Assembly: GCA_963727525.1 (NCBI GenBank)
Contig: CAVSGO010000003.1
Coordinates: 224,001 to 288,000, forward strand
Direction: 5' to 3'
DNA length: 64,000 nt
Source: an uncultured bacterium
Lineage (GTDB): Bacteria > Krumholzibacteriota > Krumholzibacteriia > LZORAL124-64-63
Below, one piece after another: positions 44,607 through 58,731 of this stretch. Under the pieces are notes generated by a model that was not told where the DNA came from, did not search any database, and was given only the letters and a program-made list of their open reading frames with translations. The first letter of the stretch is position 1. Every line of letters starts with the position of its first letter. Both the position numbers and the translations under genes were made by a program.

Positions 44607-44783
44607 CGACCATTCCCTACGCGACCAAAATCTCCTTGCAAGCCGAGTGCTGATCCGTTCTGGGGCGGATCCACCGCAGCCGCGCGGTCGGGTACCGCGA
44701 TGCCGACCGTCGTATCGCGGTCGGGATCGTTCGGAAGGGTCATGCCGAGCCCACGTCGGGCCGGCGCAGAGAGAGGAGATCCC

Positions 44784-47700
44784 ATGTTCAAAGCAGGAAT
44801 GGTATGTCTCGTGCTCGGCATTGCCGGATTGGCTTTCGCGCAGAGCGCCATCGAGGTCACCGGCGTTGGCGCCGGTGGCGAGTTGCATACGGCCGTCTTC
44901 AATCCGCTGAATCCAGACGAGATCCTGATGGGCGAGGACATGTGCGGCGTGGTCATCTCCTCATCCGACGGTAGCCAGGTCCACTGGTCGCCCTACAACG
45001 AGAACCTCATCAACGAGGACAACCAGGAAACCTCCAACGTCTATGAGATCCACGCGATCGAGAGCAACGGCACCGTGCAATACGTCGCCGCGACAGTCGG
45101 GGGGCTCTACACCCGCTGGGCTGGCCAGACGTCCTGGGTTGCCATGACCTCCACGAACCACTGGTACAACGACGGTTCGACGGGCTTTGACCGGGCGATC
45201 CCATTCTGCTGTATCGACGACAACGGCGAAGGCATTCTGGTGGCAGGCGCGGGTGTGAATCTGCATTCGCGGGCCACCGACACCGAGGATGATTCCAATG
45301 GCGTACGGCTCTACCCCGGTCTGGACGGTACGATCTCGAGTCCGTGGGGAAGCACGCAGTACACCGTCTGGATCAAGGAAGGTGCCGGCGCCACGTGGCA
45401 GCCCTACACCTATGGCTCGACCGAATGTGCATTCGGTGCGGCCCGCGACATCATCATCCGCAAGGTCGACGGCACGAATTACATCATCGTCACCACGGAC
45501 TCGGGAATCTGGATGCATGACATGGGCGCGGGTCCCTGGGTGAATCTGGCCGACCTCGACGCGTACGTCTATGGCGTCCAGCGCGGTCCGCTGCGCCACT
45601 ACGGCTGCTCGGAACCATACTCGGGCGCATGCGGCCTCCATCCCTGGAACCTGTATCTCACCGCACGGGGCACGCTGTACGCGACCCTGGCGCGCAAGAC
45701 ACCTCAGCCCGACTACGACTCCCAGGCTGTGATCTACGCCGGGCTCTACAAGATTCACGACCTCTTCAACACCACCGCGCGCGAGTGGCACTGGGTCGGC
45801 AACGCCACGGCCCTGCCACGCAACGATACCGTCTACACCTGGAATGGGTCGTGGAGCGTGCTCGAAACGCTCAGCCTGGACGTCATCGGCAGGGGCGACC
45901 TGAACTGGGGTGCCCACACGCCGCTGACCTATCCGATCCGCCTGAACGTCCTCGAGGGTACCGGAGCCGACGATGACATCGTCTACCTGGGTTGCGCGAC
46001 CAGCGGTTCCTGCGGTCTCCTGGAAGGGACCGTCGAGTACTCGCCCACCGTCGATTCCAGCACCTGGCGCAGCCTGTTCTACTCGCAGGATGGAATCCCG
46101 TACCAGAGCACGCACGAGCCGATGACCGAGGAGGAGTTCGGCTGGAGCGCCATGCATGGCGTTCGCGTCAACTTCAATCCCGACGTCTACCACGACGGTT
46201 CCGACCTGCGCCTGGTAGTGCAGGCAGGCGTCACGCCGCTCTATTCCGAAGACGGAGGCACCCACTGGCACCAGATCCAGGACCAGTACGACGCGACCTG
46301 GCCCGGAAGTCGAACCCTCGGCTACAACGAGATCTGCGTCACCGGTCTCGATGTCGATGCCGGCGGCAACCTCGTGCTGAGTACCGGAGATTGCGGGCTC
46401 TTCGAGGAGAACGATGGCGGGTTCTTCGAGTATCGCGACGTTCGCTCCTGCGACGGCAGCGACACCTGGGAGGATCCGTGTTACGACAACGCCGAGACCG
46501 GCGCGGTTCAGGTGGCGGCAAACTGGGAGGGTAGCGGCTATCCCGCCACCATTGTCGTCGCCGGCGAGGTCAGCCAGGGGTCGACCGGCTCGCACAAGTT
46601 GCTGGCGCTCGAACACGATGGTACGTGGATTCACGTCACCGCCGGATTGAGCAGCGTCATCACGAATATCGCGGACCTGGATCTCCGAATCGAGGACTTC
46701 ATCGTCGTCGACGGTACGACGATCTACATGGCGTTCGAGACGGATTCCAATTATCCGACGGAGAGCCGCGGTGTGGCGATAGGAGCGTATGCCACCGGCG
46801 GCTGGACGTGGACCATCACGACGGCCGGACTCTCCGGCGATCCCAACCTGTCGCAGCTGCGAGACCTGGAGTATTTCCCCGAGTACGGCCGGTTGTTCCT
46901 GGCGGCCAACACGGGTGTCTGGTTCTACGATCTCAACAATCCGACCTGGATCAATCTGTGTGGTTCCGGTGCTCCCGAACTGGCGCCCTTCAAGGACGTG
47001 CTCTGCCTGGCGCGCGATACCGCCGGTACGCGGCTTTACGCAGGGACTCAAGGTGGCACTGGCAGCGAGATCGGAACCGTGCTCAAGTGCACCGATCCCG
47101 GCTCTTTGCGCCCGTTCCCGGGATTCACGCCGATGGTCAACACCACGGGAACGGGGCGGCCGTTCGGATTCGAGCAACCCGCCTTCTACTATCCGCTCGA
47201 CGATCCCGATCAGTCCCTCACTGCTGTCCACGCGCTGGCGGTCAAGCCTGGCAAACCCAACCAGATCGCCGTGGGAATCATGGTGACCGGGTACGAGACC
47301 CATGGCTTCTTCTCGCAGTGTGGCGTCTACATGTACGGGCGAAACCGCAACTGTCCCACGTGGGAGGAGCTCTACGTGAATACGCCCTACAAGGGGCTAC
47401 CGGTCGCTCATCTGAAGTTCAATAACCTGGATGATGATATCCTGCACGTGGGCCACGCCGGATACGGTGCTGTGAACATCGATCTGGGGCTCGTCAATCC
47501 TCCGGGTTGCGGTGGAGGCGGCGATCCGCAGCTGTGGTTCCGCAGTCAGGGGACGCAGGTCAACACCGACGGACAGGCTGTCTTCGCATTGCGCCTCGAG
47601 CAGTCAGCCGAAGTCTCGATGAAGGTGTACGACGTGCGCGGGCGCCTCGTGTCCCGTACGCACTACGGCGTCCTCGCTGCGGGTCAGCACGAGCTTGCGT

Positions 47701-47807
47701 GGAACGGACGGGGTCAGCACGGAGAACGCGTCGCTTCGGGCGTGTACTTTGCGCGGGTCACGGCCGGTGGCGCTGCCGCGTCGCAACGGGTCGTGATGAT
47801 CAGGTAG
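44784..47807 (+). CDS. Large secreted beta-propeller (BNR/VPS10-like) protein with FlgD-Ig CTD
   Basis: RBS GAGGAG, signal peptide, Asp-box 'YSEDGGTHW', CTD 'VYDVRGRLV...WNGR...ASGVYFARV'. Confidence 0.8.
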   Translation: MFKAGMVCLVLGIAGLAFAQSAIEVTGVGAGGELHTAVFNPLNPDEILMGEDMCGVVISSSDGSQVHWSPYNENLINEDNQETSNVYEIHAIESNGTVQYVAATVGGLYTRWAGQTSWVAMTSTNHWYNDGSTGFDRAIPFCCIDDNGEGILVAGAGVNLHSRATDTEDDSNGVRLYPGLDGTISSPWGSTQYTVWIKEGAGATWQPYTYGSTECAFGAARDIIIRKVDGTNYIIVTTDSGIWMHDMGAGPWVNLADLDAYVYGVQRGPLRHYGCSEPYSGACGLHPWNLYLTARGTLYATLARKTPQPDYDSQAVIYAGLYKIHDLFNTTAREWHWVGNATALPRNDTVYTWNGSWSVLETLSLDVIGRGDLNWGAHTPLTYPIRLNVLEGTGADDDIVYLGCATSGSCGLLEGTVEYSPTVDSSTWRSLFYSQDGIPYQSTHEPMTEEEFGWSAMHGVRVNFNPDVYHDGSDLRLVVQAGVTPLYSEDGGTHWHQIQDQYDATWPGSRTLGYNEICVTGLDVDAGGNLVLSTGDCGLFEENDGGFFEYRDVRSCDGSDTWEDPCYDNAETGAVQVAANWEGSGYPATIVVAGEVSQGSTGSHKLLALEHDGTWIHVTAGLSSVITNIADLDLRIEDFIVVDGTTIYMAFETDSNYPTESRGVAIGAYATGGWTWTITTAGLSGDPNLSQLRDLEYFPEYGRLFLAANTGVWFYDLNNPTWINLCGSGAPELAPFKDVLCLARDTAGTRLYAGTQGGTGSEIGTVLKCTDPGSLRPFPGFTPMVNTTGTGRPFGFEQPAFYYPLDDPDQSLTAVHALAVKPGKPNQIAVGIMVTGYETHGFFSQCGVYMYGRNRNCPTWEELYVNTPYKGLPVAHLKFNNLDDDILHVGHAGYGAVNIDLGLVNPPGCGGGGDPQLWFRSQGTQVNTDGQAVFALRLEQSAEVSMKVYDVRGRLVSRTHYGVLAAGQHELAWNGRGQHGERVASGVYFARVTAGGAAASQRVVMIR

Positions 47808-47944: not shown

Positions 47945-47987
47945 GTCGCCATGTCTCGAACGCGACCCCTGGCAGGAGTTGACGCCC

Positions 47988-49442
47988 ATGACCGCCGCCA
48001 CGCACGCGCCGACCGCACCCGAAGATCGCATCGCCCTGGGGCAGAAGGTCGCCTACGGGGCCGGCGCGTTCGTCAACAACCTGCTGGCCGCGGCCAGCGG
48101 GGGCATGATGATCGTGCTCAACCTCGGCCTGGGCATGGATCCGGCGCTGGTGGGGCTGCTCGGGGCGCTGCCACGCCTCACCGATGCGTTCACCGATCCG
48201 CTGATGGGATACATCTCCGATCACACGAAGACGCGCTGGGGGCGCCGCCGCCCGTACATCTTCTGGGGGGCGATCGCGGCGGGCGTGATATTTGCGCTGT
48301 TGTGGCAATTGCCGCGCGGCCACAGTCAGACCTTCCTCTTCGTCTACTTCCTCGTGGGTTCGATTCTTTTCTATGGCGGCTACACGGTCTTCGCCACGCC
48401 ATGGGTGGCGCTCGGCTATGAGCTCACGCCCGACTACCACGAGCGCACGCGCCTGATGGGCACGCAGAACTTCATCGGCCAGCTCGCCTACGTGGTGTCG
48501 CCATGGTTCCTGTGGATCATGACGTCACGGCGCTTCTTCCCCGACCAGGTGTCCGGCGCAGCGGGCCTGGCGATCGTCGTCGCGGTGGTGGCGATCGGCC
48601 TGGGCATCCTGCCGGCACTGCTGCTGCGCGAGCGCATGCTCAACGTCGCCGTTGCCGAGTCCGAGGCTGCCGATACCGGGGCCACGGGCCTGCGGCGCAA
48701 CCTGGCGGAGTTCTTCCGCGGTTTCGGCACGACGCTGGCGTCAGGGCCGTTTCTCAAGCTCTGCGTGGCCACGTTTACGGTATTCAACGGCTTCATGCTG
48801 ATCTCGTCGTTCCAGTATTACGTGATCATCTACTACGTCTGCGGCGGCGATCAGAACGTGGGCGCCAGATACTCCGGGTACGCCGGTACCGTGGGCGCCG
48901 TGTGCACGTTCCTCGTGGTCGTCTTCGTCACGTGGCTCTCCACGCGCATCGGCAAGCGGTCGGCTTTCTTCGTGGCCACCGGGCTGTCGATGGTGGGGTA
49001 TGCGCTGAAGTGGGTGTGCTACAATCCTGCCCACCCGATGCTGGTGGTGGCGCCGGCACCTCTGCTCGCATTCGGTCTCGGCGGGCTGTTCACGTTGATG
49101 CCCTCGATGATCGCCGACGTCGTGGACACCGACGAGCTGAAGACCCATCAGCGCCGCGAGGGCATGTTCGGTTCGATCTTCTGGTGGATGGTGAAGTTGG
49201 GCATGGCGGCGGCGCTGGCCGGGGGTGGCTACCTGCTCAACGCCACCGGCTTCGACGTGGCGCTCGGTGGCCAGCAGGCGGCGCGGTCGATCATCCTCAT
49301 GCGTCTGTGCGATGCGGGCATTCCCATCGTGACGTCGGCCATCGCGATCTGGGCTGTCGTGCGCTACCCCATCACCGAGGAACGCGCGCGCGAGGTACGA
49401 CGCGAACTCGAAGCCCGGCGAGGTCAAGCATGGGCCCAATGA
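47988..49442 (+). CDS. GPH-family (MFS) glycoside:cation symporter
   Basis: 'DAFTDPLMGYISD...TRWGRRRPYI', 'ELTPDYHERTRL', 'MIADVVD.DEL...RREG'. About 12 TM helices. Confidence 0.92.
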   Translation: MTAATHAPTAPEDRIALGQKVAYGAGAFVNNLLAAASGGMMIVLNLGLGMDPALVGLLGALPRLTDAFTDPLMGYISDHTKTRWGRRRPYIFWGAIAAGVIFALLWQLPRGHSQTFLFVYFLVGSILFYGGYTVFATPWVALGYELTPDYHERTRLMGTQNFIGQLAYVVSPWFLWIMTSRRFFPDQVSGAAGLAIVVAVVAIGLGILPALLLRERMLNVAVAESEAADTGATGLRRNLAEFFRGFGTTLASGPFLKLCVATFTVFNGFMLISSFQYYVIIYYVCGGDQNVGARYSGYAGTVGAVCTFLVVVFVTWLSTRIGKRSAFFVATGLSMVGYALKWVCYNPAHPMLVVAPAPLLAFGLGGLFTLMPSMIADVVDTDELKTHQRREGMFGSIFWWMVKLGMAAALAGGGYLLNATGFDVALGGQQAARSIILMRLCDAGIPIVTSAIAIWAVVRYPITEERAREVRRELEARRGQAWAQ

Positions 49443-50410
49443 CCACCTGGATCATGCTGGCCGCGCTCGCCGGAGCGGGCGGCGCGACGCCAATAGACCG
49501 GGAGGTGCCATTCGTGGTGCGACCCTACCGTGTGGATGACGGCGATACGTGGCGGGGCAACGCCGTATGCTATGGCCCGCACCGCGATGGCGAGCAGCCT
49601 GGCGTGGTCGAGCCTTCGGCATCCGAGATCGCCGAGGACCTGCACCTGATGGCGCCGCACTGGTCGCTGCTGCGCACCTATGGGGCCGATGGATATGCCG
49701 CCACGCTTCTCGCCCAGATCCGCGCGTCGCATCTGCCCCTGTATGTCATGCTCGGGGTCTGGATCGCCGCCGACGATGCGGTCGCCAACCAGCGCGAGAT
49801 CGACGCCGCGGTGCGACTGGCCCGTCAATACCCGGATCTCGTGACCTCCGTCTGCGTGGGCAACGAGACCCAGGTCTCATGGTCGTTCAACCGGGTGCCG
49901 CTCGACACGCTCGTCGCTGCCGTACGCCAGGTGAGGGCGGCCGTGGCGCAGCCAGTGACGGCCGCAGATGATTACCAGTACTGGCGCGAGCCCGAGAGCC
50001 GCCATCTCGCCGCCGAGGTCGACTTCCTCACGGTGCACGCCCATCCGCTCTGGAACGGTCGCCAACTGGAAGACGCGCTGCCCTGGCTACAGGACCAGCT
50101 CGCCGCCGTCCAGACCGTGCACCCCGACCGCGACCTCGTGATCGGCGAGACGGGCTGGGCCACCTCGGTGGCCGATCACGGCGAGCAGGCAAAGCTCATC
50201 AAGGGCAAGGTGGGCGAGCCGCAGCAACGCGAATTCTATCGGTCGCTGCGCGCCTGGGCCGACTCGACCCGGCAAGTGGTCTTCGTCTTCGAGGCCTTCG
50301 ACGAGCACTGGAAGGGCGGCGACGACCCGGCCGAGGTGGAGAAGCACTGGGGGTTGTTCCGGGCCGATCGAACGGCGAAGGCGGCGTTGGCGCCGGCACC
50401 ATCGCGCTGA
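49439..50410 (+). CDS. GH17-family beta-1,3-glucanase/transglycosylase
   Basis: ATGA overlap. Motifs 'RTYG', 'LGVWI', 'VGNE', 'IGETGWAT', 'FEAFDE.WK', 'EKHWGLF'. Confidence 0.85.
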   Translation: MTTWIMLAALAGAGGATPIDREVPFVVRPYRVDDGDTWRGNAVCYGPHRDGEQPGVVEPSASEIAEDLHLMAPHWSLLRTYGADGYAATLLAQIRASHLPLYVMLGVWIAADDAVANQREIDAAVRLARQYPDLVTSVCVGNETQVSWSFNRVPLDTLVAAVRQVRAAVAQPVTAADDYQYWREPESRHLAAEVDFLTVHAHPLWNGRQLEDALPWLQDQLAAVQTVHPDRDLVIGETGWATSVADHGEQAKLIKGKVGEPQQREFYRSLRAWADSTRQVVFVFEAFDEHWKGGDDPAEVEKHWGLFRADRTAKAALAPAPSR

Positions 50411-50576
50411 AACCTACCGGAAGCACTGACGCGACTTCCCTCGTCCGCAATAGCCATATTTCTGCTGGGCATGGCGAACAGCCTGCCCGTGCGTTTCTAT
50501 CGCAAGCGATAGTCATAGGCGCATGAGCGAGTCCAATGGTCGTGGCCGCGCCAGGACCGGTTCCGCGCGGCTCCGC

Positions 50577-51584
50577 CTACTCCATCGGATAACGCAGGCC
50601 GCACTGCGCGCGGATGGTGTCCATCGTTCGCACGATGGCCAGGCTCTCGCGCAGGGGCATGATGTCCGACTCGCGGCGACCGGTGCGGATCAGGTCCATG
50701 AACGCCTCGGCCTCATGCGCGTAGCCGGCGCCGCGACTCGGCAGGTCCATCACCTCGTCGTCATCGCTTTCGCGCTGCACGACGATGCGCGTGGCGCCCC
50801 ACCAGGGCTGGACGATCCGGATCCGGCCCGACGTGCCCAGCACGTGCGCCTCGCGCGGCGTGTCCAGGCGCAAGCTCGCCGCGAGCACCGCCAGGGCGCC
50901 GTCCGCGTGGCGCAGCAGGATCGCAACCTCCTCGTCGACACCCGTCGTGCCGAGGTTCGCTTTCGCCTGGATCTCGGCCGGCGTGCCGCAGAGCATCGAG
51001 GCGAGCGTCAGCGGATAGACGCCCACGTCGAGCAGGGCGCCGCCGCCCAGCTCCAGTGCGAACAGGCGGCTCGTAGGGTCCAGCGGCGCGCGGAATCCGA
51101 AGTCGGCCATGACCAGGCGCACGTCGCCGATGGCGCCGGTTGCGATCAGCTCGCGCACGCGCACGATCGCGGGCAGGAAACGGGTCCACACGGCCTCCAT
51201 CAGGACGCGATCCGCCCGGGCGGCCGCAGCGATCATGCGCTGCGCCTGCGCGGCGTTTATGGCCAGCGGTTTCTCGCACAGCACGTGCTTGCCGGCGGCC
51301 AGGCAGAGCAGCGTGTGCTCCTCGTGGCCCACGTGGGGCGAGGCGACGTAGATGGCGTCCACGTCGGGATCGTCGACCAGGGCGGCATAGCTGGCATGGG
51401 CGCGGGGGATCCCGAATTCGGCCGCGAACGCGGCCGCGCGCGCACCATCACGCGAGCCCACCGCCACCAGTTCGGCGCCCGCGGCCTCGCGCAGCCCCGC
51501 GGCGAATTTGCGGGCGATGCGGCCCGGAGCGAGGATGCCCCATCTGATCGTGCGCCCGGTCTGTCCTGATCTTCGGCGTGACAC
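50577..51584 (-). CDS. Gfo/Idh/MocA-family oxidoreductase
   Basis: 'RWGILAPG.IA', 'GKHVLCEKP', 'GGGALLDVGVY'. Confidence 0.92.
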   Translation of the reverse strand: MSRRRSGQTGRTIRWGILAPGRIARKFAAGLREAAGAELVAVGSRDGARAAAFAAEFGIPRAHASYAALVDDPDVDAIYVASPHVGHEEHTLLCLAAGKHVLCEKPLAINAAQAQRMIAAAARADRVLMEAVWTRFLPAIVRVRELIATGAIGDVRLVMADFGFRAPLDPTSRLFALELGGGALLDVGVYPLTLASMLCGTPAEIQAKANLGTTGVDEEVAILLRHADGALAVLAASLRLDTPREAHVLGTSGRIRIVQPWWGATRIVVQRESDDDEVMDLPSRGAGYAHEAEAFMDLIRTGRRESDIMPLRESLAIVRTMDTIRAQCGLRYPME

Positions 51585-51645: not shown

Positions 51646-52725
51646 TTACCGATCCAGGACCGCGAGCAACTCCTCGATGTTCCAATGTTCGGCGATGGAA
51701 CGCACCGAATCCCCGTCGCTGTTGGCCCGGTCCGGGTCGGCGCCCGCGGCCAGCAGCCGCTTGACCATCTCGCGCTGGCCTTCGAACAGGGCCCACATGG
51801 CTGGTGTGTTGCCAGCCGCGCCGACCGGATCGATCTCTACCCCGGCAGCCAGTAGCCGCGCGACCAGGTCGCTGTTGCCACCGATGGCCGCCAGATGCAG
51901 CGGTGTCAGGCCCAGGCCGGACCGCAGCGACTGATGAGCGGGATCGGCGCCGGCGGCCAGCAGCTGCCGGCCGACACCGGCATGGGCACAACGCCCGGCG
52001 ATCATCAACGGTGTGAACCCGATGGGGTCGGTGGCGTCGACCAGGGCACCGGCTGACATCAGCAACGCCACGACGCCTTCATCGCCGGCGGCGGCGGCCC
52101 GGTGCAAGGGCGAGCGGTCCACGCTGTCCCGGGCATCGACATGGCCACCGGCGGCCAGGGCGGCGCGCAAGGCAGCGGTGTCGGCGTCGGCGATCGCCGT
52201 GAACACCGCCTGATCGGCGGGTGCGACCTGTCGGGCCAGGCCCAGGCGTTCGGCCAGCGGCTGCAGCAGGGCCTCGTGCCCCCGTCGCCGGGCGACGTCC
52301 AGGGCATTGCCATGGCCGACCAGCGACGGATCCGCGCCCACCTCGAGCAGCATGGTGGTTGTGGCCAGGTAGCCGTAGTAGGCGGCCCAGTTCAGTGCGG
52401 TGTCGCCGGCCTTGTCCCGTGCGTCGGGGTCGGCACCGTGCGCCAGGAGCGTGCGGCCGACAGCCGTATTGTCGTGTTCGGCCGCCAACATCAGAGCCGT
52501 CGCGTTGTAGTAGTCGGCGTCGCGGGTTTCGGGCGACGCCCCGGCGGTGAGCCAGGTTTCGACGGCGGCCGGGTCGCCCGCGCGTACAGCGGCCAGGAGC
52601 GAGTCGGCCACGGCCACTGCAGAGGGTGCAGACTCCGTATCACTGGCCGCGAAGGCCGCGCCGGCACTTCCCAGCGCGATGACCAGGAGGCCGCCCAGAA
52701 GAGCCCGCCGCCGATCCCGCCTCAA
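51646..52725 (-). CDS. Secreted ankyrin-repeat protein
   Basis: Signal peptide and multiple TALMLAA/TPLHLAA...GADP repeats. Confidence 0.88.
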   Translation of the reverse strand: MRRDRRRALLGGLLVIALGSAGAAFAASDTESAPSAVAVADSLLAAVRAGDPAAVETWLTAGASPETRDADYYNATALMLAAEHDNTAVGRTLLAHGADPDARDKAGDTALNWAAYYGYLATTTMLLEVGADPSLVGHGNALDVARRRGHEALLQPLAERLGLARQVAPADQAVFTAIADADTAALRAALAAGGHVDARDSVDRSPLHRAAAAGDEGVVALLMSAGALVDATDPIGFTPLMIAGRCAHAGVGRQLLAAGADPAHQSLRSGLGLTPLHLAAIGGNSDLVARLLAAGVEIDPVGAAGNTPAMWALFEGQREMVKRLLAAGADPDRANSDGDSVRSIAEHWNIEELLAVLDR

Positions 52726-53060
52726 GGGCTGACCCCAGACAAACAGAAACTGCCGAGTCCGATAAATTTCATGCCGAGATCTCCTGCTATTGTCCGCAGC
52801 GAATCACCGTGCCGGTGAAGATACGGGACCCATCCAGGAGATTCAACCGGATCCGCTGGCGCACCAGAGTCAGCCGTTCGTCGTTCCGCGGCGAGGGTAT
52901 CCAGCTCGTTCTACGGCCGGTCACGATCGGTTCCGTCAATGGAACGGTGCCGACCGAGCAGGGCGTCGTACGCGAATTCTCAGGTCTCGCCCTGGTGGGC
53001 GACCAACCCACGAGATCGTGATGATTGCGCGGGCGTGCGCGCCGTGACGTCGCACCGGAC

Positions 53061-53089
53061 TTGACTCCGGTCGCCAAAGGTCCGACAAT
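53061..53089 (+). promoter_or_regulatory. Sigma70 promoter of the tusA/dsrE/metE-like operon
   Basis: TTGACT-N17-GACAAT, with the same -35 hexamer as two other promoters in the window. Confidence 0.7.
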
Positions 53090-53313: not shown

Positions 53314-53559
53314 ATGGCGGGCTATCCGCGACACTGGAATTTCGACGACGTCTACGACTCCGTCGACCGCGGCTGCGGCGATTTCATCATCGACCTGCGT
53401 CAGGTCGTGCGCGAGCTCGAGCCGGGTGCGGTACTGATGATCGCGAGCCGCGACGCCGGTGCGCCCGTGGAAATCCCGGCCTGGTGCCGCCTCACCGGTC
53501 ATACCCTCCTCGATGCTGAGCCTCCGTTCTACCTCGTGCGCAAGCGCGAGGGCACCTGA
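53314..53559 (+). CDS. TusA/SirA-family sulfur carrier
   Basis: 81 aa. 'D..DRGCGD...LEPGAVL.I...D.GA..EIPAWCRLTGH', with CG in place of the canonical CPxP. Confidence 0.85.
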   Translation: MAGYPRHWNFDDVYDSVDRGCGDFIIDLRQVVRELEPGAVLMIASRDAGAPVEIPAWCRLTGHTLLDAEPPFYLVRKREGT

Positions 53560-53583: not shown

Positions 53584-53949
53584 ATGGCAAGCACATTCTG
53601 CGTCACGATCTCCGAATGCAAGACCAACGGCGACAAGGCGACCCTGGGTTTCGTGGTGGCGAATGCCGCCCTGGGCAGCGACAAGGACACGATGGTGTTC
53701 CTGAGTGCCGATGGCGTGTGGGCCGCAGTGAAGGGCGAGGTCGACAAGATCAATGAGGGCGACCCGTTCGCGCCCTTGAAGGACCTCGTGGAGAAGTTCG
53801 TGAAGAACGGTGGCAAGATCCTCGTCTGCTCGCCGTGCATGAAGAAGCGCGGGCTCACGGAGGCGAACCTGGTGGAAGGCGCGTCACCAGCCGGCGGCGC
53901 GGCGCTCGTGGAGTGGCTGTCCAATGGGTCGCCCAGCGTGGGGTACTAG
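53584..53949 (+). CDS. DsrE-family sulfur relay protein
   Basis: 121 aa. 'VFLSADGV', 'GGKILVCSPC.KKRG'. Confidence 0.88.
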   Translation: MASTFCVTISECKTNGDKATLGFVVANAALGSDKDTMVFLSADGVWAAVKGEVDKINEGDPFAPLKDLVEKFVKNGGKILVCSPCMKKRGLTEANLVEGASPAGGAALVEWLSNGSPSVGY

Positions 53950-53950
53950 C

Positions 53951-54698
53951 ATGAGCGATCTCGAGAGCCTGCGGCCCGATCACGTGTTCGACGGCGGCGA
54001 TCTCGACTGCGGCAGCGGTCTGGTGCTGCTCATCCGCGAGCACATGCAGAACGGTGCCCGAGGGCGGCGTGCTGGAGATGCGCAGCGTCGAGGTCACGGT
54101 GATCGACGACCTGCCACCTTGGTGCCGCATGGTAGGCCACGAGTACCTCGGCCACCTGCCGGGCCAGACAGCGCAGCAGAAGCGTTACTTCGTGCGCAAG
54201 GGTGGGGGCGAGGCTGCGCGGGCCGAGCAGCAGGCGCTCGAGGACGACAAGGCGCGCGCCCGCGAGTTCGAATGGCGACTGCGGGCGCGCGCGTCCGGCC
54301 ACCTGGCCACCACGGTCTACTGCCGCAACTTCCAGTGGACCCTGGGGCAGTCGGCAAGTTTCGAGGAGACGGACCAGCACCCGTCGGCGGTGGAGGCGCT
54401 GCTGGGTGCCGTCGCCGCCGATCTGGTCACGGGGTTCGGTACGGCGTGCGCCCAGGCCGGTCTCGATGTGGACGACGTGGAGCTCACCATCCGCGGGCGT
54501 TTGCACGATCCCATGGCCTTGCTGGGCCTTTCCGGCGGCGACCCGTCGCTCGCGTCCATCGACGCGAAGCTGTTCGCGTCCACGTTCGATGATGAGGACC
54601 GCGTGCGCGCGGTGTGGGACACGGTGGTGGCGCGTTCGCCCCTGGTGGCCACGCTGCGCAAGGCCACCGCGATGGAAACCAGGATCGCCATCGTCTGA
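53951..54698 (+). CDS. TusA-like + OsmC-like fusion protein, +1 frameshift near 54050-54054
   Basis: 'FDGGDLDCGSGLVLLIREHM' continues in the next frame as 'VPEGGVLEMRS...DLPPWCRMVGH'. C-terminal OsmC-like fold 'PSAVEALLGAVAAD...RSPL..TL'. Confidence 0.75.
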
Positions 54699-54709
54699 GG
54701 AGGACGACC

Positions 54710-55861
54710 ATGTTCAACGTGACCCAGGTGGGGAGCTGGCCCCGCTCCCGCGACCTGTTGAAAGCTCTGCGCGCCAAGCAGAAGGGTGGGCTGAGCCGCG
54801 CGGAGTTCGAACGCGTGGCCGACGCGGAGGTGCGTCGCTGCGTGCAGCATCAGGTGGACGCCGGGGTGGATGTGATCGTGGACGGCGAGCACCGTCGCGA
54901 CAACTTCTACAGCTTCGTCACCGACAAGCTCGACGGTACCCGCCTCATGTCCCTCGCCGAGATGCTCGATACGGTGGACGACAAGTCTGCCTTCGAGGAG
55001 ATGCTCTCCACCCTCGACGTACCGGCCTCGGCCATCCGCAACCCCACCTGCACCGGCAAGCTGGCCAGGCGCGAACCGCTGGCGGTGGAGGAGCTGCGCT
55101 TCGTGCAGCAGCTCACGGACAGGCCCGTGAAGGTGACGCTCCCGGGTCCGTACCTGCTCACGCGATCGATGTGGGTGGGCGCGTTCAGCAAGGCCGGCTA
55201 CGGCGACAAGACCGAGCTGGGCGACGACGTCGTGCGCATCCTGCGCGAGGAACTCACCGAGCTTCGCGATGCCGGCGCGGCCTTCGTGCAGTTCGACGAG
55301 CCAGTGCTCACCGAGATCGTGATGAGTGAGGACTGCGACCGCCGCACCTTCATGTGAGCGACGCTTGCGACCCGCCGTGATGCGGGTGCCGAGCTGGAAT
55401 ACGCGGCGGACCTGATCAACCGCATCGTCGAGGGCGTCGACGGGGTGCGCACCGGTGTGCACGTGTGCCGGGGCAACTGGAGCCGCCAGGAGGAGGTTCT
55501 GCTCACCGGAGACTACCACGCCCTGTTGCCGGCGTTCACCGCGATGCAGGTGCGTCAGTTCGTGCTGGAGTACGCCACGCCGCGCGCGGGCGAGCTGCGC
55601 GTGGTGGGCGAGAGCCTGTGCGATCGCGAGATCGGCCTGGGCTGCGTGAATCCCCGCACCGACGAGGCCGAGGACCCGGCCACCATCGTGGCGCGGGCCG
55701 AGGAGGCCCTGCAGTACTGGCGCCCGGAGCAGATCTGGCTGAATCCCGATTGCGGCTTCGGCTGCTTCGCCAACCGCTGCGTGAACGAGGAGAGCCACGC
55801 CGTGGCCAAGCTGCGCAGTATGGTGACGGCGTCGCGGATCTTGCGGGAAAGGCACGGTTGA
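54710..55861 (+). CDS. Cobalamin-independent methionine synthase II-like (MetE catalytic-domain) protein with in-frame UGA at codon 216, putative selenoprotein
   Basis: RBS GAGGAGG. Before the TGA (55355-55357): 'VGSWPR', 'DGEHRR', 'KVTLPGP', 'VQFDEP'. After it, same frame: Zn-ligand motifs 'HVCRGN', 'LEY', 'NPDCGF'. 383 aa on readthrough. Confidence 0.85.
55363..55394 (+). promoter_or_regulatory. Bacterial SECIS-like hairpin (metE-like gene)
   Basis: GCTT-GC-(G)-ACCCGC / loop CGTGAT / GCGGGT-GC-(C)-GAGC. The loop lies 18 nt after the UGA and has GU at positions 2-3. Confidence 0.65.
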
Positions 55862-55924: not shown

Positions 55925-57769
55925 TCAGATCTGCTTCCGGAACCAGAGCACGATCCCGTACCCGAAGACACCAAACACGACAGACACGATGATGAGCATC
56001 GCCAGATCAAACCCCGACCCCGAGAGTATCTCGATACCCCAGCGTCCGCCCAACCTGATCGCGTGATCGTCGACAAGGCCCTTGAGATTTCCGACGAGAT
56101 CGAAGCCGAACGTACCGATTGCGATCAACCCGAGAAGATATGCGAGTCGGTTGTCATTGCGCTTGGCAATTCGCGCTTCACGATCCTGCGTCTGCTTCTC
56201 GACGTTGTCGACCATCGCTTCGATCGCGGCGACGTTGCGCGCGATGCCGCGCCGCGCCTCGAGAGCCTCGAACGTGTCCTTTTCGGTGTCGTATCGAAAT
56301 ACGTTGATGTAGCGCTTCTGCTGATAGTCGCTGACCTGCCGCCTGCGGAAGGCGTAGAAGAGTTCGGTCGCTGCGCGGAGATCGTGCTTCTCGTCGGCGC
56401 GAATCACCTCCCGGAGCAGGGACGTGGCGCTCCGCTCGTAGGCGCGCACGAAGAACTCATTGTGCATCGCGAGAGCGTGGATGAGAAACGCGTAGGGGCA
56501 GGTCCCGATCCAGTCATTGCCGGCCTCGAGGCTGCGGGAGCGAGACACGAACGTCATCAGTGCGCGAGGATTCGCGAAACGAATGAAGAAGCTCTCCTCT
56601 TCCTGTTCGGCCGTCGCCGGGTAGATCGGATCGAGGCTGTCGAGGACCTCGGAAGCATCCTGATTGATGAAGTCGATGATATTCTGGGTGAAGCCTGCAA
56701 GGAACAGATAGATCAGGTCTTCCTTGGCGAACTTCTCGATCTCGGCAAGGGGAAGTTTGACACGGGCGAGCCCGGAAGACTGGGCCGCGTCGCGACAATC
56801 CGTGACGAACTCCGGATACCGATCGAACGCATCCATCGTGACGCGGTCCATCCGCCTCACGCGAATCGGTTCACCGTGTTCACCCGGCCGGGACGGCGGT
56901 ACCAGCGCCTCGAAAAACTCGCGATCCTGAAAGAAGAACATGTAACGAGCGCGCGGCATCATCAGGCCAGGTATCTCGAGGAACGCGTCTTTCTCGATGT
57001 ACAATTCGAACGGGCTCGTGGCGGGAGGTCGTGACGCCGATGAATTGCGGATCCGGCGTTCCAGGTCCGAGAAGTCACGGTCGAATCGGGATGCGACCCA
57101 CGCCCACAGCGAGATGGTCTGGCCGCCGACAGGTTCACGCACGCAGACCGAATCCAGAGGCAGGATATGCGTCGGACGCGCCAGGACATGGGAGGCGCGC
57201 CCGTGCCCGCCGTAGCGAAATTCCTTGGGGGCGACGGCTTTCTGGAGCAAGCCTAGGCGGTAGAAATCAGCCGCCGAGTGCTCGTACGGTACCGAAAACG
57301 ACAAGTGGTAGGAAAGCGCGTAGGCGAGATGGACGTACCAGAATCGCCGCGCCCGCACCATGCGCACGTCTGGCTCTTCGAGATCGACCTCGAACGTCGT
57401 GCCCTCCGTCGTCCAGGTGATGGACCGCGGCATGTGCAACTCGAGTTCCTCGCCTTCGGGACGCCCCGAAACGTCGAGCAGAAAATCCAGGACCCGACCG
57501 TTACGCTCGCGGTTGGCGATATCGTTGAATAGCGGGTCCATCGCTTCCTGCAGGTCGCGAGTTCCGAGATACTCGCGGGGCGCGGGTGCTCCAGGGGCCT
57601 TGCCGCTCGACGATGCTTTTGGCATCCCCGATCGCGCCGGATCGCGATTCTCCGCGCTGAGGAATTCCTGGAACGTCGCCGGGAGTTCGTCGTGTCCGAT
57701 GTATAGCGAAATCGTGAAAGATAGTGTCCTGTCCGTACAGCTTTCCCATATCAGGCGAGCCTCGCTCAT
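55925..57769 (-). CDS. Hypothetical protein with CorA-like architecture (large soluble domain, coiled coil, two C-terminal TM helices)
   Basis: RBS GGAGG. Long helix 'IEAMVDNVEKQTQDREARIAKRNDNRL' then two hydrophobic segments and a basic tail. No GMN motif. Confidence 0.6.
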   Translation of the reverse strand: MSEARLIWESCTDRTLSFTISLYIGHDELPATFQEFLSAENRDPARSGMPKASSSGKAPGAPAPREYLGTRDLQEAMDPLFNDIANRERNGRVLDFLLDVSGRPEGEELELHMPRSITWTTEGTTFEVDLEEPDVRMVRARRFWYVHLAYALSYHLSFSVPYEHSAADFYRLGLLQKAVAPKEFRYGGHGRASHVLARPTHILPLDSVCVREPVGGQTISLWAWVASRFDRDFSDLERRIRNSSASRPPATSPFELYIEKDAFLEIPGLMMPRARYMFFFQDREFFEALVPPSRPGEHGEPIRVRRMDRVTMDAFDRYPEFVTDCRDAAQSSGLARVKLPLAEIEKFAKEDLIYLFLAGFTQNIIDFINQDASEVLDSLDPIYPATAEQEEESFFIRFANPRALMTFVSRSRSLEAGNDWIGTCPYAFLIHALAMHNEFFVRAYERSATSLLREVIRADEKHDLRAATELFYAFRRRQVSDYQQKRYINVFRYDTEKDTFEALEARRGIARNVAAIEAMVDNVEKQTQDREARIAKRNDNRLAYLLGLIAIGTFGFDLVGNLKGLVDDHAIRLGGRWGIEILSGSGFDLAMLIIVSVVFGVFGYGIVLWFRKQI

Positions 57770-57813
57770 GGGCGCCTCCACAGGTGTCGCTAATTCTGGC
57801 GGTCCAACAGTCA

Positions 57814-58731
57814 TCATCCGAGCGCATGAATCGCGTCGCGCAGATTGACCGGACGCCGAGGCGCGATCCGGCCGATACCGTCCGCTGTCGCGACACGCGC
57901 CAGAAGCATCGTCGGGTCGAGAAGGGGGATCTCCGTACCCGCGACGCACATGTCCGAGAGTAATTCGACCTGACGCCGCGCGACATCGCTATTCTCGATC
58001 GCCGCGCCCTTCAAGACCGAGATGCCGAAGAAGCCGCGGAGATGGTGTTCGAGGATGCACGCCGGCACGGTGGTTGCGGGTGCACCGACAACGGAATATA
58101 CCAGATGCGACTCGGCCACCTGCCCGGGCGAGAGCGGCGGCTGGATATAGGGAAAGTCCACGACACGGGCTCCGCGCCGGGCCCAGACACGCAGGCGATC
58201 GAATTGATCGAGGCCGGTGTACCTCGTGTCGCGCTCATAGGCTTCGGCGCTCATCGCAAACGGATCGTTTTGCTCGATGAACATCAAAGGACGTGTCTCG
58301 AATCGGGCCGAGATCGTCTGGCGAACGGCCGCGAGCATGGGCGTGAATCGGCCAGAGCCGCGGGCCGCCTCATCGATGTAGATGTAGTTGAGGTTTGCCG
58401 TGATAGCATGCTGGTACGCGATGGTGATGACGTTGGCACCACCGACACGAAGACCCGCCGCGATGTCATCGGCAACGAGGCAGATCTCGCTAAACGCACC
58501 GTACTTGGCCGCAAGTTCCTCGTATGCCGGCGAATCGTTCAATGCCAGGCACCGCTCGAAGCCGCTGACATCTTCCTTCTCGTCGGGGAGGACGAAAGCT
58601 CGATCGTAGCCGGCGTAGAATTCCGCGAAGACCTCGCTGCCCGGCTGGCTGGTCGCGTAAACCCGAAGGCCCTCTGCCGTCGTCAAGGCCCAGTCGCCAG
58701 CTGCGAGTCGCAGCGGTCTGGCGTGCGTCAT
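57814..58731 (-). CDS. GNAT-fold acetyltransferase-like protein
   Basis: 'AFVLPDEKE', 'NLNYIYIDEAARGSG' (motif A-like), 'R.RVWARRG...FPYIQPPL'. Confidence 0.65.
   Translation of the reverse strand: MTHARPLRLAAGDWALTTAEGLRVYATSQPGSEVFAEFYAGYDRAFVLPDEKEDVSGFERCLALNDSPAYEELAAKYGAFSEICLVADDIAAGLRVGGANVITIAYQHAITANLNYIYIDEAARGSGRFTPMLAAVRQTISARFETRPLMFIEQNDPFAMSAEAYERDTRYTGLDQFDRLRVWARRGARVVDFPYIQPPLSPGQVAESHLVYSVVGAPATTVPACILEHHLRGFFGISVLKGAAIENSDVARRQVELLSDMCVAGTEIPLLDPTMLLARVATADGIGRIAPRRPVNLRDAIHALG

Follow-up and report, generated by a model that had tools for sequence, protein, structure and literature searches.

Is the in-frame TGA of a gene related to the cobalamin-independent methionine synthase MetE a stop codon, or does it specify selenocysteine (Sec)? 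The question is raised by a stretch of 64,000 nt from an uncultured bacterium of the Krumholzibacteriota (contig CAVSGO010000003.1, positions 224,001 to 288,000 of the forward strand), hereafter called the window, in which all positions are counted from the first letter. A preliminary description, made from the letters of the window alone, had noticed at 54710–55861 a MetE-like open reading frame (ORF) that stops at a TGA, and had proposed that this codon is translated. From the comparison of this gene with its relatives we conclude, with high confidence, that the TGA at 55355–55357 is a selenocysteine codon and that the product of the gene is a single MetE-like zinc enzyme of 383 residues, of which residue 216 is Sec. 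The features of the gene are the following.

54710..55861, + strand: MetE-like (Meth_synt_2) gene, very probably encoding a selenoprotein, 383 codons plus stop, Sec at codon 216 (ORF, read-through translation and Pfam PF01717)
54697..54703, + strand: Shine-Dalgarno-like GAGGAGG, 6 nt before the ATG at 54710 and overlapping the stop of the upstream gene (read from the sequence)
55355..55357, + strand: in-frame UGA, very probably Sec (U216); Cys in aligned homologs, TGA at this codon in orthologs
55859..55861, + strand: true stop codon, likewise TGA; orthologs terminate at the equivalent place with TGA, TAA or TAG

The reading frame continues beyond the TGA

The MetE-like frame runs through EDCDRRTFM to the TGA at codon 216, and from there continues in phase up to the TGA at 55859–55861. 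Beyond codon 216 it contains HVCRGNW, LEY and NPDCGF, which correspond to the invariant residues H251/C253, E287 and C348 in an alignment with 22 full-length homologs. Sequence and alignment thus confirmed what the preliminary description had seen, an ORF ending in EDCDRRTFM whose frame goes on with all zinc-ligand motifs intact. The read-through product matched Pfam Meth_synt_2 over residues 4–375 (E 5.6e-33, 115 bits for a cut-off of 21), and its gene is the sole PF01717 match of the source genome.

Codon 216 is aligned with a near-invariant cysteine

The read-through protein and the 22 full-length database homologs (59–72% identity) were compared in an alignment, A1. The column of residue 216 was Cys in 21 of these 22 homologs, the exception being P0002, which has a gap of 6 residues at this place. 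Similarly, in a family alignment of 176 rows, column 216 was U or C everywhere except in the same deletion variant. Around the position the homologs read TFMCA[AT]LA, which bears out the motif R[ST]FMC[AG]AL that the preliminary description had given for the subfamily; its concern that the column might not be a conserved Cys is answered by a residue that is nearly invariant (21/22). The other functional residues that are invariant throughout the 176 rows are C114, H251, C253, E287 and C348. We take H251, C253, E287 and C348 to be the His/Cys/Glu/Cys zinc ligands of MetE. The segment ATLATRRDAG, right after the Sec, was much more uniform among the Sec forms than among the Cys forms, as expected if an RNA signal constrains the codons.

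P0002 is a database homolog with 71% identity over 100% of the query, and it lacks exactly the six residues RTFM-U-A. It keeps the peptide TLATRRDAG, encoded by the hairpin described below, and is phylogenetically nested within the Sec forms; its Sec codon has apparently been lost by deletion.

Additional cysteines were observed in the clade that holds the Sec forms. At residues 348–357 (about 55751–55780) it has added cysteines beside the last zinc ligand, in CGFGCFANRC. Residue 352 is Cys in 128 of the 129 rows of this clade (P0002 uncounted), whereas the all-Cys clade has Thr here in each of its 46 rows. Seven residues ahead of the Sec, position 209 is Cys in 67 of the 91 rows of the main Sec clade.

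The TGA form occurs in many phyla

Orthologs with a TGA at codon 216 are numerous and belong to many phyla, at least 131 distinct ones having been found. In a pattern scan, each prokaryotic species was represented by a single genome, only conserved amino-acid codons and the TGA were fixed and the other positions were N; it gave at least 119 stretches with TGA at the same codon. Five of 61 related genomes had the MetE-like gene, with TGA at the same codon in two (G033 and G028, 84% and 78% identity) and Cys in two. In the whole of its own phylum the gene was detected in 22 of 208 genomes (E up to 1e-60), 20 of which have the TGA form; the codon was checked in all 20 (G000, G033, G028 and 17 more). 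Genes 74–90% identical to that of the window occur in 19 genomes of the phylum. The distinct total is given as at least 131, and not 139, because 8 of the 17 own-phylum stretches were identical over 75 nt to loci already counted. The TGA is therefore not peculiar to this assembly, a possibility that the preliminary description had raised against its own proposal: it is present in two of the four kin with the gene, in 17 of 17 further genomes of the phylum and in the stretches of the pattern scan.

The gene was intact on both sides of the codon. In 83 rows examined in detail, among the matches listed, the downstream HxCxGN was present in 83 and the upstream DEP in 81, the other two being cut by contig ends. 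As labelled in the records, the TGA-form loci come from Planctomycetota, several families of Desulfobacterota, Verrucomicrobiota, Acidobacteriota, Bacteroidota, Calditrichia, Krumholzibacteriia, Eisenbacteria, Gemmatimonadota, Armatimonadota, Anaerolineales and Gammaproteobacteria. Two cultured strains are among the TGA-form loci listed, Desulfobulbus alkaliphilus DSM 24258 and Desulfopila aestuarii DSM 18488.

The gene of the window was nearer to some loci labelled as other phyla than to a kin of the same family. Horizontal transfer is not claimed on this basis, because the identity over 75 nt between 8 of the 17 own-phylum stretches and listed loci makes the phylum groupings unreliable.

A conserved hairpin follows the TGA

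Downstream of the TGA lies a hairpin of the type expected of a bacterial selenocysteine insertion sequence (SECIS).

55370..55387, + strand: putative conserved bacterial SECIS core, 6-bp upper stem (ACCCGC 55370–55375 with GCGGGT 55382–55387) and 6-nt loop (CGUGAU in RNA, CGTGAT in DNA, 55376–55381)
55363..55394, + strand: extended hairpin of the source genome, lower stem GCTTG 55363–55367 with CGAGC 55390–55394 across a 2x2 internal loop, 11 bp in total; not conserved family-wide

The upper stem begins 12 nt downstream of the UGA and the lower stem 5 nt downstream, and the 46-nt stretch folds at −19.3 kcal/mol. The core ACCCGC/GCGGGT and the GU of the loop had been correctly recognised in the preliminary description. 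However, the hairpin comprises 11 and not about 12 bp and does not follow the UGA directly; the extended fold does form in the window, but it is specific to the lineage and only the 6-bp upper stem is conserved.

The hairpin was compared between 122 TGA orthologs (among the matches listed; 122 distinct 75-mers) and 14 Cys-codon relatives for which DNA was available (10 distinct). At least five of the six upper-stem pairs were kept in 116 of the 122 TGA orthologs, and the remaining six have a different hairpin at the same place. In contrast, none of the 14 Cys-codon relatives reached five stem pairs. The mean local minimum free energy (MFE) was −11.2 kcal/mol for the TGA orthologs versus −4.6 kcal/mol for the Cys-codon relatives. 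That the hairpin might not be conserved among TGA-bearing orthologs, the last reservation of the preliminary description, is thus contradicted by this comparison.

Third-codon entropy was 0.17–0.78 bits at the four stem codons, versus 1.5–1.9 bits at flanking fourfold sites. These frozen positions are not an artefact of the search, because they were N in the scan pattern. Each of the six upper pairs was formed in 68 to 83 of 83 sequences. Changes that preserve pairing were A-U to G-C (L036), C-G to A-U (L090) and G-C to G-U (six sequences); in L160 pairing is also kept by C-G to U-G, through a Thr-to-Ile change. Across phyla the consensus is ACCCGC-CGKGAY-GCGGGU, with a G at position 2 of the loop and U or G after it.

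The bacterial SECIS model, as given in the legend of Fig. 2 of PMC13188914, has a loop of 3–9 nt, an upper stem of 4–16 bp, a G in the first two loop positions, a UGA-to-loop distance of 16–37 nt and an MFE of at most −7.5 kcal/mol. The hairpin, with its 6-nt loop, 6-bp stem, 18-nt spacing and MFE of −12.5, falls within these quoted constraints, in agreement with the fit that had been suggested from the window alone.

The six loci with a different hairpin (L035, L041, L060, L109, L125 and L135) are Bacteroidota-type orthologs that read TRSDAD after the Sec. Their substitute hairpin has about 10 pairs, two single-base bulges and a 7-nt loop, at the usual distance from the UGA, and is a predicted alternative SECIS of the same gene.

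The source genome has the machinery for selenocysteine

A tRNA-Sec was found in the source genome (70.4 bits for a gathering score of 47; anticodon TCA according to ARAGORN), together with SelA (388.8 bits) and SelB (302.2 bits for a cut-off of 242.25, plus the wing domain). The gene of SelD (C8:225636-226547) has its own in-frame TGA, in the context SAG-U-AAK, and a hairpin downstream, so that SelD is itself a predicted selenoprotein. There is no single operon for these functions, the genes of tRNA-Sec, SelA, SelB and SelD being scattered over four sites on three contigs. More generally, SelA was present in 50 of the 52 TGA-form genomes tested, the two others being metagenome-assembled genomes, and in both Cys-form kin.

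By every criterion that can be applied to a sequence, the MetE-like gene reads as a bacterial selenoprotein gene. Following the established mechanism, as outlined in PMC13188914, SelB carrying Sec-tRNA(Sec) would bind the 6-bp hairpin that starts 12 nt downstream, and would deliver Sec while the UGA occupies the ribosomal A site.

Alternative explanations of the TGA

Several observations weigh against Sec decoding. Taken by itself, the hairpin of this one sequence is only slightly more stable than chance would give in DNA so rich in G+C (z −1.1 to −2.4): in a shuffle test, z was −2.39 for the 46-nt stretch (2 of 200 shuffled sequences as good), −1.12 for 32 nt (30 of 200) and −1.40 for 81 nt (15 of 200). 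Full compensatory double changes are few, being found in two of the six pairs with one sequence each, and the RNAalifold covariation term is near zero; the near-invariance of the stem leaves little room for covariation. Conservation does not extend to the lower stem, since four of its five pairs form in only 18–49 of 83 sequences, the fifth (columns 14–41, U-A) being invariant; the lower stem was therefore rejected as part of the conserved element and is considered a lineage-specific pairing. Finally, the gene just upstream, a TusA/OsmC fusion, is frameshifted in the assembly, so that the locus could be decaying in the source genome, or the assembly may contain errors. As for the fold, the significance of the hairpin comes from the comparison of orthologs and not from the single sequence.

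The same frameshift would favour the view that the gene is a pseudogene in the source genome, its TGA having arisen by nonsense mutation or through an error of assembly. Against this, the identical codon is TGA in the at least 131 distinct orthologs, which are unlikely to be copies of one contaminant, as their sequences differ (122 distinct 75-mers); moreover the downstream frame and its motifs are intact, and the downstream synonymous sites are under constraint at the RNA level. We consider the probability of a pseudogene to be negligible. If instead the UGA terminated translation, the product would be an N-terminal fragment of 215 residues, perhaps joined by a separately started C-terminal piece in a split enzyme. 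Gene callers evidently stop here, the nearest database protein having 72% identity (among the best 120 of 8000 scored), and two chains could in principle assemble a barrel. However, neither a start codon nor a ribosome-binding site was found just after the TGA, the first in-frame start being 30 codons downstream, within conserved sequence. In the Sec forms, conservation is highest over the ten residues that follow the TGA, and the Cys forms are single chains. Neither half would be complete, because the zinc ligands are all in the second part and DEP and GSWPR in the first. A split enzyme is thus very improbable. Downstream hairpins can also stimulate readthrough in general, with insertion of an ordinary amino acid (near-cognate Trp, Cys or Arg), and sequence data alone cannot identify the inserted residue. 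Here, the presence of Cys in every non-TGA relative is the signature of Sec/Cys exchange, the TGA form is found with SelA in nearly all genomes (50 of 52), compared with the 21.5% of bacteria in which Sec genes occur according to a passage of PMC10418091, and the hairpin conforms to the SelB-type SECIS model, including its G[U/G] loop motif. Ordinary readthrough at this codon is accordingly given little weight, and decoding as Sec is by far the preferred explanation.

Evolution of the Sec and Cys forms

A FastTree tree was built from 176 rows, consisting of 105 Sec loci, 11 Cys loci and every second protein of P0002–P0121. It separated an all-Cys clade of 46 rows from another clade of 130 rows (support 100). 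The latter splits into a group of 92 (91 Sec forms and P0002) and a group of 38, in which 14 Sec and 24 Cys forms are interleaved. When 59 rows were analysed with IQ-TREE and the all-Cys clade was taken as the root, the Sec forms were basal and Cys subclades nested inside them, with 7 Sec/Cys changes, at least 3 of which are forced by well-supported branches. The hairpin accompanies the TGA at each of these changes. This pattern is consistent with a single gain of Sec and several later returns to Cys, the hairpin being lost on each occasion.

Protein family, fold and position of the Sec residue

Profile, motifs and fold all place the protein in the MetE catalytic-domain family (PF01717). In contrast, its membership among methionine synthases proper is not supported, as judged from two points. 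All nine NCBIfam methionine-synthase models scored below cut-off, the best being NF003317 (181.4 bits versus 406), and the N-terminal folate-binding barrel of two-domain MetE is missing: the model of this barrel, Meth_synt_1, matched residues 140–212 only (27.6 bits for a cut-off of 27), and all 383 residues of the protein make up one barrel. A full-length MetH is encoded elsewhere in the source genome (1623 bits). Because of this MetH, and because the gene is patchy in the phylum, the MetE-like selenoprotein is probably an accessory enzyme and not the housekeeping methionine synthase.

The structure was modelled with AlphaFold2 from 23 aligned sequences (mean predicted local distance difference test score, pLDDT, 86.3; predicted template-modelling score 0.89). 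The best Foldseek matches were MetE catalytic barrels, with E 1.5e-18 and a template-modelling (TM) score of 0.72–0.75 for T. maritima MetE; the single-domain 3rpd gave a TM-score of 0.80, normalised to target. In a profile alignment to N. crassa MetE, RRTFM-U-A falls within a 12-column insertion right after the DEP motif. Sec/Cys216 and Cys114 are the only residues invariant throughout the family that are absent from canonical MetE at the aligned positions. Together with the disordered loop of the model, these features suggest a mobile segment by which the zinc site, or a partner protein, may be reached by a strong nucleophile or by a redox partner.

A four-gene module

The MetE-like gene is the last of four co-oriented genes, the three others being the following.

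about 53314..53559, + strand: TusA-like gene 1, start codon uncertain (Pfam TusA, E 3.6e-07)
53584..53949, + strand: DsrE-like gene (Pfam DsrE, E 6.4e-16)
53951..54698, + strand: TusA-like/OsmC-like fusion gene, with Pfam OsmC on the frame 54054–54698, split by a +1 frameshift near 54050–54054

Conservation of this arrangement was measured in 84 Sec loci (among the matches listed) whose upstream DNA spans 2150 nt or more, and in 15 Cys loci. The DsrE-like gene was found in 78 and the fusion in 79 of the 84 Sec loci. The first TusA-like gene was upstream in 70 of them (69 in the order of the window) and just downstream in 9 more. In one Sec locus the module was 4 kb off, and it was absent from four, so that about 79 of the 84 have it beside the MetE-like gene. 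Among the 15 Cys loci, none had a DsrE-like or first TusA-like gene within the DNA compared, although just 6 of the 15 have at least 2150 nt upstream, which reduces the force of this count for a module specific to the Sec form; 4 of the 15 have only a distant OsmC-like gene (33–37% identity). Beyond the module, no other neighbour was conserved in more than 9 of 122 loci among the matches listed.

Carrier-type cysteines are kept in the partners: gCG and WCR in 48 of 48 TusA-like proteins, CxxC in 88 of 88 DsrE-like proteins and PPWCR in 97 of 98 fusions; those of the OsmC domain are variable. From these motifs the TusA-like, DsrE-like and TusA/OsmC proteins look like carriers of sulfur or selenium.

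The partner genes were inspected for Sec codons of their own, and this possibility was rejected: the four internal stops seen in orthologs were one natural stop and three TAG or TAA codons, and no TGA stood at a Cys column. The three single in-frame TAG or TAA codons, in L059 and L135 (DsrE-like) and in L070 (OsmC fusion), belong to three metagenome-assembled genomes and are probably errors or decay, not Sec codons.

The frameshift of the fusion gene lies at 54040–54060, where the window is one base longer than the ortholog of its kin, between the MQ and the VPEGG codons. All 11 fusion orthologs inspected were single intact ORFs, and the frameshift reflects either a mistake of assembly or a genuine lesion of the strain. 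In the segment 52000–56200 of the window, no Rfam match was obtained at E up to 1, and so no riboswitch or described RNA family. A scan of the locus for promoters and terminators gave a single weak promoter-like site, at 53061–53089.

A possible function

Conservation and gene neighbourhood are the basis for any statement on function. They would be consistent with Sec216 acting as a catalytic nucleophile or redox partner beside the His/Cys/Glu/Cys zinc site, in an enzyme that would work with the co-transcribed TusA-like, DsrE-like and TusA/OsmC proteins. Weighing against this part of the interpretation, the pLDDT is under 50 for residues 212–221, and the Sec loop is disordered in the model.

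A more daring reading joins all these elements. The MetE-like protein of the window would be the first member to be recognised of an unlisted, widespread selenoprotein family within a four-gene sulfur/selenium relay, where the carriers load or re-reduce the Sec of a mobile loop above a zinc alkyl-transfer site. The cargo of the carriers would be cysteine-persulfide (or perselenide), and protein-bound sulfur or selenium species, not free homocysteine, would be methylated or demethylated. Taken as a whole, we regard this scheme as speculative and rather unlikely.

Comparison with known systems

Known selenoproteins that act on methyl groups have folds unrelated to the MetE-like barrel, and the methyltransferases among them depend on S-adenosylmethionine. 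Arsenite methyltransferase, methylated-DNA-protein-cysteine methyltransferase and MduS (PMC13188914, Table 1) are nevertheless a precedent for Sec in alkyl transfer to or from a chalcogen nucleophile; unlike them, the enzyme of the window is a zinc triosephosphate isomerase (TIM) barrel.

Table 1 of PMC13188914, an inventory of 2026, lists 119 prokaryotic selenoprotein families and subfamilies, and it has no entry for MetE, PF01717 or methionine synthase. This agrees with the preliminary description, which had placed MetE-like proteins outside the classical selenoprotein families. The main texts of deep-Sep (PMC12013277), BSepDB (PMC13326102), GOS (PMC2398784) and PMC9402790 likewise make no mention of methionine synthase, MetE or homocysteine in connection with a selenoprotein, and nothing relevant on a MetE-like selenoprotein was found in the open-access full-text literature. 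Within that literature and Table 1 of PMC13188914, the family is therefore unlisted.

Compared with bacterial selenoprotein genes that have the SECIS inside the gene, such as those of FdhA and SelD, the MetE-like gene is alike in the UGA/Cys pairing, in the G[U/G] hairpin 16–37 nt downstream, in its predicted dependence on selA, selB, selC and selD, and in the repeated interchange of Sec and Cys. It differs from the selenoproteins of Table 1 (PMC13188914) in that its Sec is not in a UxxC/CxxU thioredoxin-like motif: the motif RRTFMU-ATLA is in an inserted loop of a TIM-barrel zinc enzyme.

With MetE and the core synthases (MesA-D, in the passages of PMC7857596 that describe them; 3rpd, 1ypx and T. 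maritima MetE) the protein shares Meth_synt_2 and the motifs GSWPR, DGE..R, DEP, HxC, E and DCG, and like the core synthases of these passages it is a single domain of about 380 residues. However, it is only about 20% identical to any solved relative of MetE, and its family has the 12-residue insertion with Sec/Cys216 as well as the invariant Cys114, whereas MetE has neither. The partners also differ, being TusA/DsrE/OsmC-like here and a corrinoid protein or MesX/DUF1852 in the case of MesA-D (same passages of PMC7857596). The passages on MesA-D mention neither selenocysteine nor OsmC.

Finally, DsrE-like (UxxC) and OsmC-like (UxxT) families are themselves known selenoproteins (PMC13188914). 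The module partners resemble the TusA/DsrE sulfur-relay proteins in that they match Pfam TusA, DsrE and OsmC and keep carrier-type cysteines in their TusA and DsrE parts but, unlike the known DsrE-like and OsmC-like selenoproteins, they carry Cys and not Sec (CxxC in 88 of 88). In the open-access literature, nothing was found that connects TusA/DsrE/OsmC-like carriers with a MetE-like enzyme.

Other genes of the window

Upstream of the module, at 51646–52725 (− strand), lies a divergent gene for an ankyrin-repeat protein of 359 residues (Ank_2, E 1.4e-38). The ORFs 55925–57949 (−), 50523–51569 (+) and 52102–52818 (+), of 674, 348 and 238 residues, matched no Pfam family at E up to 0.001, and some of them may be spurious in this G+C-rich DNA. 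A protein of 1035 residues with a FlgD immunoglobulin-like domain at its end is encoded at 44700–47807 (+), and one of 635 residues with a C-terminal match to glycosyl hydrolase 17 at 48503–50410 (+). The latter gene is overlapped by a frame for an MFS_2 sugar transporter (47979–49442).

Significance

All gene callers whose output was examined split or truncate the gene. Because the nearest database protein has only 72% identity (among the best 120 of 8000 scored) though closer orthologs exist, the annotation of an entire enzyme family is wrong in at least 131 genomes; a profile with a rule for Sec would correct this. The SECIS, nearly invariant across phyla, offers a clean case of an RNA signal that constrains a protein sequence. 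The close association of the Sec form with TusA-like, DsrE-like and OsmC-like carriers opens the function of single-domain MetE-like paralogs to testing, and the presence of the module in two cultured Desulfobacterota makes experiments feasible. Most known selenoproteins are redox proteins of the thioredoxin fold, and a Sec on the loop of a zinc TIM-barrel alkyltransferase would widen the range of selenium chemistry. If the relay outlined above proved true, it would be an undescribed selenium-dependent route in the metabolism of methyl-sulfur or methyl-selenium compounds.

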